This document shows, one piece after another, positions 906 through 4,136 of a stretch of DNA of 4,136 nt. Position 1 is the first letter of the stretch. Each line of letters opens with the position of its first letter. Source of the stretch: a virus (Duplodnaviria > Heunggongvirae > Uroviricota > Caudoviricetes); IMG/VR virus record IMGVR_UViG_2706794683_000007; one strand, given 5' to 3'. The translations under genes and the position numbers were made by a program. The notes beneath the pieces were generated by a model. That model was given only the letters and a program-made list of their open reading frames with translations. It was not told where the DNA came from and ran no database searches.

Positions 906-909
906 AAGT

Positions 910-972
910 GCGGGTGCGTTGAGGATGCCTGACACATCAGAGGTGGGCGGGGATGGGATCAGCTCCCCGCCC
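910..972 (-). promoter_or_regulatory. hok mRNA 3' UTR elements: fbi-like sequence complementary to the mRNA 5' end, plus a GC hairpin
   Basis: Plus 910-924 (GCGGGTGCGTTGAGG) is the inverted complement of plus 1295-1308 (CCTCAAGCACCCGC): 8 + 6 bp with a 1 nt bulge, about 385 nt apart, both inside the predicted hok transcript. A perfect 8 bp inverted repeat GGGCGGGG (945-952) / CCCCGCCC (965-972) sits just 3' of the hok stop. Both resemble the fold-back-inhibition architecture of plasmid R1 hok mRNA. Confidence 0.45.
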
Positions 973-980
973 GGTCACTC

Positions 981-1136
981 TTACTTCCTGGATTCGTAGT
1001 CTACGAAGACAGCGACCTCCGTCTGGCCGGTTCGGATTCGTACCTCACAGAGGTCTTTCCTCGTTACCAGTGCCGTCACTATGACGGTTAAACAGATGAC
1101 GATCAGGGCGATTAACATCGCCTTTTGCTGCTTCAT
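981..1136 (-). CDS. hok: Hok/Gef-family type I toxin (51 aa small membrane protein)
   Basis: Translation is MKQQKAMLIALIVICLTVIVTALVTRKDLCEVRIRTGQTEVAVFVDYESRK: a hydrophobic transmembrane segment followed by the conserved C-x(n)-C periplasmic tail typical of Hok/Gef/RelF. From memory it closely resembles E. coli HokD. AAGGAG lies 9 nt upstream of the ATG at 1136-1134. The ORF track extends the same frame to an ATG at 1193 (70 aa), which I read as leader sequence. Confidence 0.85.
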   Translation of the reverse strand: MKQQKAMLIALIVICLTVIVTALVTRKDLCEVRIRTGQTEVAVFVDYESRK

Positions 1137-1149
1137 AGCCTGCTTCTCC

Positions 1150-1255
1150 TTGCCTTTCGGCATGTAAGAGGCTAACCTACATGTGCAAAGCATGAAATTG
1201 GCCTCAGATTAATGTTAAGCGTCTTGCCGGACGCGTAATGTTAACTGGGGCTTTT
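1150..1255 (+). ncRNA. sok: Putative Sok-like antisense RNA region (position inferred, boundaries uncertain)
   Basis: By analogy with hok/sok loci, a short antisense RNA should be encoded opposite the hok leader. A weak plus-strand promoter candidate is TTGCCT (1150-1155), 17 nt spacer, TAACCT (1173-1178). A transcript from about 1185 would be antisense to the upstream in-frame ATG at 1193 and its SD-like GAGG. No clean terminator was found. Confidence 0.25.
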
Positions 1256-1294
1256 CTCTATCTGCCTTTTGGTGTTCATGCCTGAAGCAGATAG

Positions 1295-1342
1295 CCTCAA
1301 GCACCCGCAGTCATTCTACTTACCTCGCCAATATGAAATCAA
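1295..1342 (-). promoter_or_regulatory. hok promoter and mRNA 5' end (tac-like element)
   Basis: Minus strand reads TTGATT (plus 1342-1337), 18 nt spacer, TAGAAT (plus 1318-1313), giving a predicted start near 1306-1309. The predicted 5' end GCGGGUGCUUGAGGCU resembles the start of R1 hok mRNA as I recall it, and is complementary to the 3' element at 910-924. Confidence 0.45.
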
Positions 1343-1363
1343 TCAGAAAGGTGCCCCATAAAA

Positions 1364-2050
1364 TCACTCCTTCTCTTCTTTACCGTAGTGGAGTTGACCA
1401 ATTTTGATAAGAGGGCGTCCCTGAGATTTGCGGTGTAGATTGGTATCGCGCAGAGAATACACACAGCCACAATATTCCTGCTGATAGAATTTTTCGCGCT
1501 TGCTGATTTCAATCATACGGGACGAGCCGCCCTGCTTGCGCCAGTTATAATCCCAGTACACCATGCCCGGATAATGCGCGACGGCTCGCCGCCCACAGTC
1601 GTTAACCTGCTGCATATTTTTCCAGCGTGAAATGCCCAGTGAACTGCTGATCACACTGAAACCATTTTCAGCGGCGTACAGCGCTGTCCGCTCAAAACGC
1701 ATGTCAAAACACATGGTGCAACGGATCCCTCGTTCGGGCTCCCATTCCATTCCTTTGGCTCGTTCAAACCAGTTGTCTGTGTCGTAATCAGCATCAATAA
1801 ACGGCACGCCGTGTTGTTCAGCAAAGCGAATATTCTCATCCTTACGAATTAAATACTCTTTCTGAGGATGAATGTTCGGGTTGTAGAAAAAGATGGTGTA
1901 GTCGATTCCCGAGGCCTGAAGCGCCTCCATCACCTCACCGGAACATGGAGCACAGCAAGAGTGCAGTAGTAGTTTGTTTGCCCCGTTTGGGAGCTCCAAT
2001 TTGGGCCGTTTGAAATCAGCAACTGTCATAAATATGTTTATTGGGGTCAT
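1364..2050 (-). CDS. queH: QueH-like (DUF208) putative epoxyqueuosine reductase / Fe-S enzyme homolog
   Basis: 228 aa ORF with [11 protein letters not shown] near the N-terminus (Cys32/33/36), CTMC (Cys111/114) and EYCGCVYS near the C-terminus (Cys194/196), which match my recollection of DUF208/QueH conserved cysteine motifs. There is no obvious SD before either the ATG at 2050 or the in-frame ATG at 2029, so the start is uncertain. Family call is from recalled motifs only. Confidence 0.7.
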
Positions 2051-2197
2051 AAAAATATCAAAGAGTGTAGCATTAGAACGGGGCTATCGGAAACAGATGT
2101 GTGACTGCTCCCCGCCCTTTCGGGTGGTCTCCTGATGATTTGAGGGTGCAGAAATCCCTCCGGTTAAGGATTAAATTTTTAACAGTGCTAAATTTAA

Positions 2198-2554
2198 TTA
2201 TTCAGTTCTGGATTTTGTCGCCCTGCGTATCCGCGCTTTCGCGTTACGCTCAATCTGTATCAGCTTTTCTATATTTCTCCGCCTTTCCTGTTCCTCCTGG
2301 CGCAATAGCCTTACATCATCTGCCAGTCTGGTTTCTCTTTTTGCCACAGAGAGCATCCAGTCAAACGGCTCCACAACCGCACCGCAGATTTTACAGCGGA
2401 CCTGACGCTCTTTTTCGTCAACCCGTACAGAGGCGTGATGGCAATATGGTCTTTCCGATGGCTCATAAAGAAAATTAACCTGATTACGAGGGTCATCCTC
2501 TTTTACCGGAAATAAAACGATATTGCTTAACTCATCTTCTGGTTTTATTTCCAT
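2198..2554 (-). CDS. Hypothetical small Zn-ribbon-like protein with basic coiled-coil C-terminus (118 aa)
   Basis: ATG at 2554-2552 is preceded by AAGGAGAGGAGC, a strong SD. Product starts MEIKPEDEL and contains C-H-H ... C-x-x-C (YCHHASVRVDEKERQVRCKICG) followed by an Arg/Glu-rich helical tail. The ORF track's longer form starts at 2611, where ATG abuts the upstream TGA (TGAATG); either start is possible. Confidence 0.7.
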   Translation of the reverse strand: MEIKPEDELSNIVLFPVKEDDPRNQVNFLYEPSERPYCHHASVRVDEKERQVRCKICGAVVEPFDWMLSVAKRETRLADDVRLLRQEEQERRRNIEKLIQIERNAKARIRRATKSRTE

Positions 2555-2611
2555 GCTCCTCTCCTTTGATGCGAATGCCAGCGGTAATTGAAGCCTGATA
2601 GCTAATTTCAT

Positions 2612-3034
2612 TCACAGTATCGCCTCCTGAAAATTACCCTGATAGAAAGCCAGTACACGCTGCATAGCTTCGCTCTTCCGGCACTCGCGACAGATTATAT
2701 TCAGGCGCCTGTCGTAGCGGCGTATTTCTCCGTCAGGTAATGACCAGATAAGGTCCGGATCAACAACAACCGGTTTCCTCACCTTTACTCTCGAGAGTTT
2801 TTTGCGGGCGCTTTGCCAGTCCTTGCGAGCCTGTTCAGACGGGAATAAGCCGTAGCCAGAATTATATACATCACCACTTGCGACCAGTTCTATGCATAAG
2901 CGACCGACAGACGCACGACTGATACCTGTTTCATCTGACAACTGCCGAATCGTGACCCGACCGTCCTGATGCACGAGTTCCACAATTCGCGTCTTCAGTT
3001 CTTCCCGCTGTTCGGGAGTAAAAGGTTTCGCCAT
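2612..3034 (-). CDS. Hypothetical phage protein with N-terminal helix-turn-helix / winged-helix-like segment (140 aa)
   Basis: ATG at 3034-3032 is preceded by CAGGAGGATTT (strong SD), 14 nt after the DnaC-like stop. The segment VTIRQLSDETGISRASVGRLCIELVASG looks like an HTH. The C-terminal half is basic and carries a CRECRK motif. Confidence 0.75.
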   Translation of the reverse strand: MAKPFTPEQREELKTRIVELVHQDGRVTIRQLSDETGISRASVGRLCIELVASGDVYNSGYGLFPSEQARKDWQSARKKLSRVKVRKPVVVDPDLIWSLPDGEIRRYDRRLNIICRECRKSEAMQRVLAFYQGNFQEAIL

Positions 3035-3048
3035 AAATCCTCCTGAAA

Positions 3049-3666
3049 CTACTTAACAACCCTCGAATGGCTAACATTCGGACGCCAGCTCTCCCAGTTA
3101 AAATTCACCCAGCGNNNNNNNNNNNNNNNNNNNNNNNNNNNNNNNNNNNNNNNNNNNNNNNNNNNNNNNNNNNNNNNNNNNNNNNNNNNNNNNNNNNNNN
3201 NNNNNNNGATAGCTGCCGCTAAGTGATTCTTCCCGGTACCAGGTTTTCCGCTGAACGCAAAATTTGTACACCCGGTCATCAGTTCATCGGCGATGGATTT
3301 CGCCTGGCTTAACGCGTATCGCTGGCCGTCGTTCTGCACCTGGTAATTCGCAAACGAGCATTTACGGTGCAACGGCTGGATGCCTGAGCGATTCAGAATT
3401 TTTTCCACCCGCAACTGGCGNNNNNNNNNNNNNNNNNNNNNNNNNNNNNNNNNNNNNNNNNNNNNNNNNNNNNNNNNNNNNNNNNNNNNNNNNNNNNNNN
3501 NNNATTCATTGGCGATGCTGTGTCGAATCACCTGCTCAGGTGTAAAACCCTGCTGACGGAATTTTTCCAGTTCCCGTATCGCCCCGTTAGCGCCCTGCTC
3601 CGTTCGAATCGGTTTTCGCAATGCCTGTCTGAACCGGACCCACTCATGCCAGAGTGTTTCCGGCAA
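3049..3666 (-). CDS. DnaC-like (AAA+, IstB/DnaC family) helicase loader, phage-type; interrupted by two N runs, 5' boundary unresolved
   Basis: Walker A FAFSGKPGTGKNHLAAAI is encoded at about 3208-3261. NRSGIQPLH...CSFANY and the C-terminal WVNFNW both parallel E. coli DnaC as I recall it (NRSGIRPLH, GKPGTGKNHLAAAI, WVIFNW). The ORF-track start at 3666 is a TTG, and the frame is open upstream to a stop at 3733-3735, so the 5' part may belong to the upstream replication gene. N runs at 3115-3207 and 3421-3503 are translated as X. Confidence 0.75.
   Translation of the reverse strand: MPETLWHEWVRFRQALRKPIRTEQGANGAIRELEKFRQQGFTPEQVIRHSIANEXXXXXXXXXXXXXXXXXXXXXXXXXXXXRQLRVEKILNRSGIQPLHRKCSFANYQVQNDGQRYALSQAKSIADELMTGCTNFAFSGKPGTGKNHLAAAIXXXXXXXXXXXXXXXXXXXXXXXXXXXXXXXRWVNFNWESWRPNVSHSRVVK
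3115..3207. other. Run of 93 N (unresolved or masked bases) inside the DnaC-like ORF
   Basis: Directly visible. It replaces the region where Walker B, sensor and arginine-finger motifs would be expected. Confidence 0.99.
3421..3503. other. Run of 83 N (unresolved or masked bases)
   Basis: Directly visible. It lies at the probable junction between the replication-initiator C-terminal region and the DnaC-like N-terminus. Confidence 0.99.
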
Positions 3667-3745
3667 CCAATCGGGCAGCTCAATAGCCTCCGGCTCGAAT
3701 TTTTTAGACGCTCGTTTTTGGCGAGGGGGAGATCAGTATTTAGAT

Positions 3746-3765
3746 CTTCCTCTTCCTCTTCCTCT
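3746..3765. repeat. Hexanucleotide tandem repeat (CTTCCT)x3, encoding poly-Glu on the minus strand
   Basis: Plus 3746-3765 is cttcct cttcct cttcct ct; on the minus strand this is GAG GAA x3 (EEEEEE) in the open linker frame. Confidence 0.8.
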
Positions 3766-3766
3766 G

Positions 3767-3857
3767 GTAACGCTTTTTGATCCGTTTGTGTAACGCTGGC
3801 AGCGTTACCTTTTCGTTTCAGTTCGCGTATTTTTGTTACTCGCTCGTTTGTAACCGC
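3767..3857. repeat. Iteron-like repeat cluster and 19 bp palindrome; candidate phage replication origin inside the initiator gene
   Basis: CGTTTG/CGTTTC occurs at 3783, 3814 and 3845, exactly 31 bp apart. Associated GTAAC(C)GC / GCGTTAC motifs occur at 3767, 3790, 3802, 3835 and 3850. A 9+1+9 palindrome GTAACGCTGGCAGCGTTAC spans 3790-3808. Three GATC sites fall within 3731-3782. Confidence 0.25.
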
Positions 3858-4136
3858 CCGTTTTTTTTAGAGCTTTTTCCGTTATGACGTTCAAAGTTAG
3901 GTAGAGAAAGCCCTCCGTCATTTTCGACCAGCCATCCAACCTGAATTAACGCATCAGCAAAACCAGACATAAAAGTGATGCGATCTATTGCACTTTTTGT
4001 AACGCCGCGAGCGTTACAATCTGCATTACCGTCTATCATTTGTTGATCCGCCCATGCCCAGAAGCGAATAACCTGAGGTAGCCTGAGTTTAACGGACACT
4101 CCTTCCTGAAATAGAATGGCATCAGAAGGAGCTAAT
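3836..4136 (-). CDS. Phage replication-initiation protein, N-terminal domain (possibly DUF1376/YdaU-like); 5' partial
   Basis: ORF 3836-4099 (GTG at 4099) translates to MSVKLRLPQVIRFWAWADQQMIDG...GWLVENDGGLSLPNFERHNGKSSKKNGRLQTSE. The frame stays open upstream to the window edge (4136), and the SD-like AGGAAGGA abuts the GTG with no spacing, so the true start is probably outside the window. It sits directly upstream of a DnaC-like gene, as in Rac-type replication modules. Confidence 0.55.
   Translation of the reverse strand, partial: LAPSDAILFQEGVSVKLRLPQVIRFWAWADQQMIDGNADCNARGVTKSAIDRITFMSGFADALIQVGWLVENDGGLSLPNFERHNGKSSKKNGRLQTSE

Follow-up and report, generated by a model that had tools for sequence, protein, structure and literature searches.

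Where a Rac-like prophage starts its replication, and which DNA sequence marks that place, is the question raised by the stretch of viral DNA analysed here (IMG/VR record IMGVR_UViG_2706794683_000007; 4,136 nucleotides (nt), hereafter the window). Judging from its genes, the window is the decaying early region of a Rac-like (lambdoid) prophage with genes on the minus strand. It carries the remnant of a YdaU-family initiator gene (3504-4073, minus strand), which was recognised by three-frame translation, alignment to intact relatives of 262 residues and blastn to the Escherichia coli FDAARGOS_944 locus (L001). An earlier note on this DNA had proposed a candidate origin in the part of the gene coding for the linker between the initiator domains, as in lambdoid phages. 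Comparison with relatives and with known systems leads us to a similar reading, namely that the stretch is probably the core of a phage replication origin located inside the coding sequence of its own initiator, as lambda ori is. The location is supported by a predicted disordered linker, conservation of the DNA and a lambda-like layout; the anatomy of 31-base-pair (bp) repeats and GATC sites is not supported.

According to counts in the window and comparison with relatives, the repeat proper is a half-site of 7 bp, GTAACGC, which is arranged as palindromes about 200 bp apart and, in relatives, also as tandem copies with a 12-nt period. The half-site occurs six times in the window against 0.34 expected, a number reached in none of 200 shuffles, and five of the six copies fall within the initiator remnant: two in palindrome P2, two in palindrome P1 and one as a single half-site. 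P2 is the 19-bp palindrome GTAACGCTGGCAGCGTTAC (GTAACGC-TGGCA-GCGTTAC; 3790-3808), present where the earlier note placed it; its arms are 9 bp long and its centre is 1 nt. It is located in the linker-coding part, where the minus-strand codons read G-N-A-A-S-V-T, and we propose it as the principal site at which the initiator binds the origin. P1, a second 19-bp palindrome (GTAACGC-CGCGA-GCGTTAC; 3999-4017), lies in the N-domain coding region (codons C-N-A-R-G-V-T), outside the coordinates given in the earlier note and not listed there. The distance between P1 and P2 is 209 bp in the window and 207 bp in intact relatives. The extra half-site (3767-3773; GTAACGC on the plus strand, GCGTTAC in gene orientation, codons A-L-P), identified from the sequence count and from relatives, adjoins a purine tract and is located 23 nt downstream of P2. 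Degenerate motifs, GTTAC at 3835-3839 and GTAACCGC at 3850-3857, are weak candidates for further half-sites; a canonical GCGTTAC is found in some relatives at gene +335, the site of GTTAC 3835-3839.

The anatomy first proposed for this region was a different one, in which three CGTTTG/C iterons with 31-bp spacing and a GATC cluster of the Dam/SeqA type made up the origin. CGTTTG at 3783, CGTTTC at 3814 and CGTTTG at 3845 (3783-3850, plus strand) do stand at exactly equal spacing, and the three GATC sites at 3731, 3743 and 3779 do fall within 52 bp (3731-3782). However, CGTTTS is not enriched in the window (eight copies against 5.5 expected), an equally spaced 5-mer triple of some kind arises in 4.8% of dinucleotide shuffles of the region, and at least three GATC sites within 52 bp are met in 17% of shuffles. 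The hexamers fall in the gene codons T-N-E, L-K-R and Q-T-D, among which the middle one (K-R) alone recurs in relatives. The GTAAC(C)GC-type motif said to follow each hexamer is present after the first, approximate after the third (GTAACCGC) and missing after the second (AGTTCGCG). As for conservation in related prophages, the GTAACGC palindrome is kept, while the first and third hexamers are not and the GATC sites come and go. Being at chance level and unconserved, the hexamers are not regarded as a functional repeat nor the GATC sites as a significant cluster, and we give very little probability to this arrangement as the origin. A Dam/SeqA-controlled origin was rejected, since the GATC sites are neither enriched beyond chance nor conserved.

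A scan of species-representative genomes yielded 20 loci, in Shigella, Mixta, Erwinia, Yersinia, Serratia, Rouxiella, Rahnella, Pantoea, Pectobacterium, Samsonia and Winslowiella as well as in contigs assigned to Novipirellula and to an Ignavibacteriae metagenome-assembled genome (MAG). All 20 carry a palindrome in the N-domain coding region, usually accompanied by one in the linker and one upstream of the ATG. In intact Rac-like copies the last of these, P0 (TGTAACGCTGCGAGCGTTACA), is a third palindrome 11 nt upstream of the start codon, beside the ribosome-binding site. Taking the genome-scan relatives together with metagenomic viral contigs, 50 distinct loci were obtained, and the canonical site, defined as GTAACG-N7-CGTTAC, was present as P1 (N-domain coding region) in 41, as P2 (linker) in 38 and as P0 (upstream of the start codon) in 16 of them. 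It was found nowhere else in about 120 kb of DNA flanking the 50 loci, and half-sites reached a density of 10.8 per kb inside the module against 0.40 per kb outside. In 120 further viral contigs (1.2 Mb), 340 sites were located less than 700 nt from the gene and one elsewhere, with exactly three sites in 105 of the contigs; these contigs came from a search pattern too specific to reveal the palindrome in other gene families, and they were used only for the confinement of sites to the gene. One viral scan gave close relatives only (at least 94% identity) and was uninformative on conservation. The exclusive location of the sites at the initiator gene is a direct observation.

Homologues in the Novipirellula rosea contig (L106) and the Ignavibacteriae MAG contig (L107), with 43-56% protein identity, carry the same GTAACGC palindromes. 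The assignment of these contigs to phyla remote from Enterobacterales means either that the family is very widespread or that these are foreign contigs in the assemblies.

Judged from codon-level comparison, the element is conserved far beyond what the protein needs, and the constraint lies on the DNA. In a codon alignment of 22 N-domains, with a median pairwise DNA identity of 67%, third-codon positions in the arms of P1 were 0.91-1.00 conserved, compared with a median of about 0.55 (range 0.27-1.00) at other columns with a conserved residue. Codon 54 encodes C, G or S, and its second and third bases, GT, are invariant. In the 148 cluster representatives compared (50% identity), N was always preceded by G, C, S or R (NGT codons) and V mostly by S, G or C (NGC codons). 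P2 is moreover kept in two reading frames, GNAxSVT and VTxxALQ. The second frame was found in Uetakevirus podophages and a Klebsiella phage, in which, at 66-70% DNA identity, P1 and P2 are kept 209 bp apart and P2 is read as V-T-x-x-A-L-Q, not as G-N-A-x-S-V-T.

Since both palindromes of the window lie in the same frame and give xNAxxVT, it could be supposed that they merely reflect codon usage or a peptide motif that is repeated, and that the DNA has no function. This supposition is hardly credible in view of the different frame of the linker site in other relatives, the fixed synonymous positions, the identical site in non-coding DNA upstream of the gene, and the placement of the encoded peptides in a loop modelled with low confidence and in a linker predicted to be disordered. 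In that model P1 is encoded in the loop, while P2, the extra half-site and the purine tract correspond to residues ~123-145 of 262, within a predicted disordered linker of residues 120-160; loop and linker are thus predicted to be places where a DNA code would cost the protein little. DNA-level conservation is what we observe here, and the presence of a conserved cis-acting DNA element is nearly certain.

In relatives, the linker contains one to three tandem GTAACGC half-sites with a 12-nt period (the peptide xNAx being repeated), followed by the full palindrome as the last unit. A further GCGTTAC, read as A-L-P, is located 12 or 23 nt downstream of the linker palindrome. Centre-to-centre distances in the 50 loci were 182, 192 or 202-204 bp between P0 and P1, and 189, 207-210, 219, 228-231 or 264 bp between P1 and P2, changing in steps of about 10-12 bp. 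Helical phasing at 10.5 bp gave R = 0.72 for P0-P1 and R = 0.91 for P1-P2, values confounded by shared ancestry and by the 12-nt repeat unit. The helical phase between palindromes may thus be kept, which we take only as a hint.

Variant half-sites provided another line of evidence. In divergent loci GTGACGC and GTTGCGC replace the canonical half-site, and the change affects every site of one gene together. Where the variant is GTGACGC...GCGTAAC, it occurs in both P1 and P2, and the last half-site is then GCGTCAC (A-S-P); where it is GTTGCGC/GCGCAAC, it occurs three times in the gene, and the last half-site is GCGCAAC (A-Q-P). This co-variation is observed directly, and at the peptide level the agreement of P1 with P2 in their non-canonical variants was matched in none of 20000 permutations. 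No link between half-site class and recognition-helix residues was discernible, the variant loci being too few.

The same variants bear on the view that the palindromes act in RNA, as hairpins of the initiator mRNA or as an antisense terminator. They could form stems of 7-9 bp; P2 and the CTTTTCGTTT that follows it on the antisense strand have the score of an intrinsic-terminator-like site (L001 3297-3325, equal to window 3790-3818, plus strand); and some variant classes (L115, L126) change both arms complementarily. Nevertheless, the arm sequence itself is near-invariant over the 50 loci, and in two independent loci GTGACGC...GCGTAAC leaves position 3 unpaired in P1 as well as in P2. Isolated and tandem direct half-sites, which are unable to pair, still co-vary with the class. 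Neither P0 nor P1 has the T-rich tail, terminator-like matches number one against 1.9 expected in shuffles, and there was no Rfam family match at the element. A function at the RNA level is accordingly considered very improbable.

According to the sequence comparisons, the sites are probably bound by the initiator encoded in the same gene. Among the protein families encoded there, only the initiator recurs in each of the 48 loci examined, and no neighbouring family is found in more than 14 of them. The N-domain of the initiator and the sites travel together, with at least four unrelated C-terminal domains attached. The C-domains resemble the C-terminal domain of DnaT, which fits the role of a replisome organiser. 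The initiator belongs to the YdaU family and to PHROG 2509 ('replication initiation protein'), and its gene is located between ydaT and the DnaC-like ydaV. Neither Pfam nor NCBIfam had a match for the N-domain, in the window remnant or in intact relatives. Membership in the lambda O family (Phage_rep_O) was also considered and rejected: there was no Pfam match, the best match was PHROG 2509, and the match to phrog_678 ('replication initiation O-like') covers residues 77-236 only, so that the greater part of the N-domain lies outside it.

The binder has so far been deduced from sequence, and the junction of the N-domain/C-domain mosaic lies right at the purine tract. Both points would suit another binder, a host or phage protein, or sequences that serve recombination or mark a module boundary for swapping of C-domains. 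We regard this as quite improbable, because no other gene family is common to the loci, the hosts are as far apart as Enterobacterales and contigs assigned to Planctomycetes and Ignavibacteriae, and the motif is confined to the initiator gene. In addition, a variant half-site recurs at all sites of its gene; this agrees with a cognate protein co-evolving with the DNA, and homology for recombination would not call for it.

Adjacent to the extra half-site, the gene strand of the window contains a 21-nt homopurine tract, AGAGGAAGAGGAAGAGGAAGA (3745-3765, minus strand), which encodes poly-Glu and corresponds to the (GAGGAA)3 tract that the earlier note had correctly pointed out. In about 43 of 49 distinct loci the longest purine run of the gene is located at +369 to +456, with a median length of 21 nt compared with 10 nt for the second longest run, and in about half of the relatives it begins 1 nt after the last half-site. 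The tract is built either as (GAGGAA)n, giving EEEEEED, or as (AGAGA)n with a 5-nt period, giving EKRREEK. Being encoded in these two ways, the tract is kept while the peptide changes its character. The junction between the conserved N-domain and the mosaic C-domains coincides with the tract. From its sequence and position, the tract is a candidate unwinding element or a candidate for single-strand contact. In the metagenomic relatives L110-L170 an (AGAGA)n tract at about +369 to +411 is read as P-E-K-R-R-E-E-K, and its DNA is near-identical though the proteins are only 40-60% identical.

Taken together, the proposed cis element has three parts: the GTAACGC-N5-GCGTTAC palindromes (P2 in the linker, P1 about 207 bp upstream and, in intact relatives, P0 before the ribosome-binding site), extra single or tandem half-sites, and a homopurine tract of about 21 nt right after the last half-site. 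We infer that dimers of the initiator, through a winged-helix-like N-domain, would bind the palindromes and half-sites, and that the resulting nucleoprotein complex would destabilise the adjoining purine tract or contact one of its strands. The DnaT-like C-domain, together with the DnaC-like YdaV, would then recruit the host DnaB. P0, where present, probably provides autoregulation as well. The identity of the binding protein, the unwinding step and the origin activity are our inference; the resemblance of the layout to lambda ori is a plain observation.

An alternative is that the palindromes are autoregulatory operators only, at which initiator dimers repress their own transcription or translation, like dimers of plasmid Rep proteins at inverted repeats, with the true origin elsewhere. 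Palindromic sites suit dimers, P0 lies upstream of the ATG (15-30 nt) beside the ribosome-binding site, and there is no AT-rich element beside P2. On the other hand, P0 is absent in 34 of the 50 loci while P1 and P2 are nearly universal, and operators 160-400 nt within a coding region would be unusual. Furthermore, the purine tract and the tandem half-sites beside P2 have no obvious role in an operator, yet they match the layout of lambda ori. Operators alone are thus an unlikely explanation, and the origin within the initiator gene is the reading we prefer.

Several points nevertheless weigh against the origin reading. No AT-rich unwinding element was found adjoining P2, the GC content around the linker being 40-50%, and P0, placed at the ribosome-binding site, is no less suited to autoregulation than to a role in the origin. 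The linker has one full palindrome and one to three half-sites, not the four tandem iterons of lambda. Because of linkage, a gene passes on the sites it contains, and their co-occurrence with the N-domain does not by itself identify the binder. By its sequence the initiator is dead in the window, and the element there is accordingly non-functional in cis. Finally, a literature search on YdaU function, DUF1376, YdaU with YdaV and the GTAACGC motif returned nothing on the element.

A more elaborate form of the origin reading may be mentioned as speculation, which we consider unlikely as a whole. Dimers of the initiator may bridge the three palindromes, which are about 190-230 bp apart and near whole helical turns, into a looped complex that would shut off its own expression at P0 and load protein strand-specifically on the GA-repeat tract. 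If true, the origin would combine double- and single-strand recognition, comparable to DnaA boxes with DnaA-trios, and the peptides in the loop and the linker (xNAxSVT, EEEEEED or EKRREEK) would be side effects of a DNA code. As a corollary, relic origins might be fired in trans by intact homologues in polylysogens, leading to local over-replication of the chromosome.

Whether or not such a loop forms, the origin reading would provide a precise origin open to testing, with the half-site GTAACGC, the 19-bp palindrome and the GA tract as its recognition sequence. The initiator family concerned is a very large one; it comprises 6758 clusters at 50% identity, has a DNA-binding domain without a Pfam model, and includes Rac-like prophages and Uetakevirus podophages. 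The element is also a clear case of overlapping codes, since a putative binding site in the DNA dictates peptide in two frames, and the peptide encoded by the purine tract is acidic in some relatives and of mixed charge in others.

The initiator gene of the window itself is a pseudogene, and the copy of the putative origin within it a relic. The left end of IS600 (4074-4136, plus strand) cuts the gene at about codon 35 and stands in place of codons 1 to ~35 and of all upstream DNA, and P0, missing from the window, was lost with this insertion. IS600 was recognised because thousands of E. coli records match only that segment, and a match in BL21 to 4074-4136 stops 2 nt before the IS600 transposase coding sequence; IS600 runs on past the window end at 4136. 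In addition, a run of eight A at 3861-3868, compared with six in relatives, represents a +2 frameshift, alignment to relatives revealed a 10-bp deletion near 3724-3731, and the 3' end of the gene falls in a masked run (3421-3503). With the initiator truncated and frameshifted, the sites of the window could act only with an intact homologue supplied in trans from another prophage. This instance is therefore a dead relic of no special importance by itself. The same gene has decayed independently in Shigella flexneri SFBU1023 (L089) and E. coli ECMA0423 (L090), where the poly-Glu tract is shortened to PVEEED and an 11-nt deletion in the C-domain leads to a stop after residue 210; all three palindromes are still intact there despite the decay of the gene.

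The remaining gene content was obtained from three-frame translation and from comparison with annotated E. coli genomes and phages. The gene order is the YdaU-family initiator, the DnaC-like ydaV, a DUF977 protein, a zinc-ribbon open reading frame (ORF), QueH, hokD with the sok RNA, and a DUF1367 ORF. Window positions 909-3114 are 99.9% identical to E. coli FDAARGOS_944, and the helicase-loader gene ydaV downstream of the initiator (3049-3420, minus strand) was located by the annotation of that locus. ydaV is broken by a masked run at 3115-3207, and its start falls inside the masked run at 3421-3503. The masked runs are not length-true, as the 83 N of 3421-3503 stand for 264 nt of the E. coli locus and the 93 N of 3115-3207 for 319 nt. 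Coordinates are consequently not colinear across them, and reading frames are not traceable through them. No DnaA box (TTWTNCACA with at most one mismatch) was found in 3548-4136, and a simple promoter scan detected no promoter-like site and none overlapping P0. Rac-like prophages with this initiator family are present in about 680 of 5426 complete E. coli genomes. We also identified a complete hok/sok type I toxin-antitoxin locus (981-1306, minus strand), in which the toxin ORF resembles HokD (Pfam HOK_GEF, E 1e-22) and the antitoxin RNA is sok (Rfam RF01794, 117 bits), and a complete gene for QueH, epoxyqueuosine reductase (1364-2050, minus strand; Pfam QueH, E 2e-65).

Among known systems, Bacillus phage SPP1 has its oriL inside gene 38, which encodes G38P. 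The element described here shares with it a replisome organiser with binding sites, putative in our case, in its own gene, followed by the gene of a helicase loader. The hosts are unrelated, no sequence similarity was detected, and the repeat architecture is different.

The initiators of iteron plasmids (F RepE, pPS10 RepA, R6K pi) bind as dimers to an inverted-repeat operator and as monomers to direct iterons. A similar arrangement is found here, with a palindrome of half-sites just upstream of the initiator (P0) and tandem direct half-sites of 12-nt period in the putative origin. Unlike these plasmid systems, the initiator is of the phage replisome-organiser type with a DnaT-like C-domain, and its sites lie inside the coding sequence.

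In lambdoid initiators, a different N-domain pairs with a different repeat. The YdaU of the K-12 Rac prophage occupies the same place in a Rac-like early operon (ydaT, initiator, ydaV) and shares the C-terminal domain (hhalign probability 99%, 81% identity over 113 columns). Its N-domain, however, is DUF1376, for which a Pfam match was obtained in K-12 YdaU only, and the N-domains do not align with those of the family described here. K-12 ydaU contains no GTAACGC and has a repeat of its own, TTGAACATCTG, with inverted copies, in the regions coding for the linker and the N-domain. With a different N-domain and a different repeat, the origin specificity would differ from that of oriJ; K-12-type specificity (DUF1376, oriJ) was rejected for the window element, as both that N-domain and that repeat are absent. 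Comparison with Rac-type and lambda-type modules, which the earlier note had suggested, thus yielded a parallel to the layout of lambda ori and neither GTAACGC nor the N-domain type in common with K-12 ydaU. That proteins of a 'YdaU family' with the same C-domain carry different N-domains and repeats matters for annotation and for the replication compatibility of prophages.

OriJ is reported to be an active origin of Rac (PMC3945230), as also by Potrykus et al. 2000 according to the citation of that work in PMC11014345. Our literature search found no open paper that gives its position at the sequence level. In K-12 ydaU (L008 2293-2364, 2512-2523 and 2597-2608), TTGAACATCTG is present in five copies, three of them in the linker-coding region, and the linker repeats are accompanied by perfect inverted copies of 10-11 nt (ATGTTCAAACA / TGTTTGAACAT). 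Based on their sequence and position, these repeats are a candidate for the sequence-level location of oriJ.

The closest parallel in layout is lambda, whose origin lies in the middle of gene O and in whose Stx-phage relatives extra iterons add residues to the O protein (PMC7466680). Unlike lambda O, the initiator described here has an N-domain without detectable homology to O, its sites have a different sequence (GTAACGC), and extra full sites are located about 200 bp (P1) and about 400 bp (P0) upstream. Its tract is GA-rich rather than AT-rich, and its partner is the DnaC-like YdaV rather than lambda P. In lambda, four 18-bp iterons are located at O +349 to +433, and the coding strand then has a run of 18 purines, AAAAGAAAAAAGAAAAGA, at +453 to +470; in the family described here, the corresponding ranges are +338 to +413 for the sites and +369 to +456 for the tract. 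In both systems dyad-symmetric sites of about 18-19 bp, whose binding is putative here, are followed by a homopurine run on the coding strand. The origin, likewise putative here, is in both cases situated inside the initiator gene, in the part that joins the N-terminal domain for DNA binding to the C-terminal domain for recruitment of the helicase loader. As in the lambda-type origins of Stx phages, the repeats differ in number, and additional ones lengthen the linker by further residues, the units here being half-sites of 12 nt.

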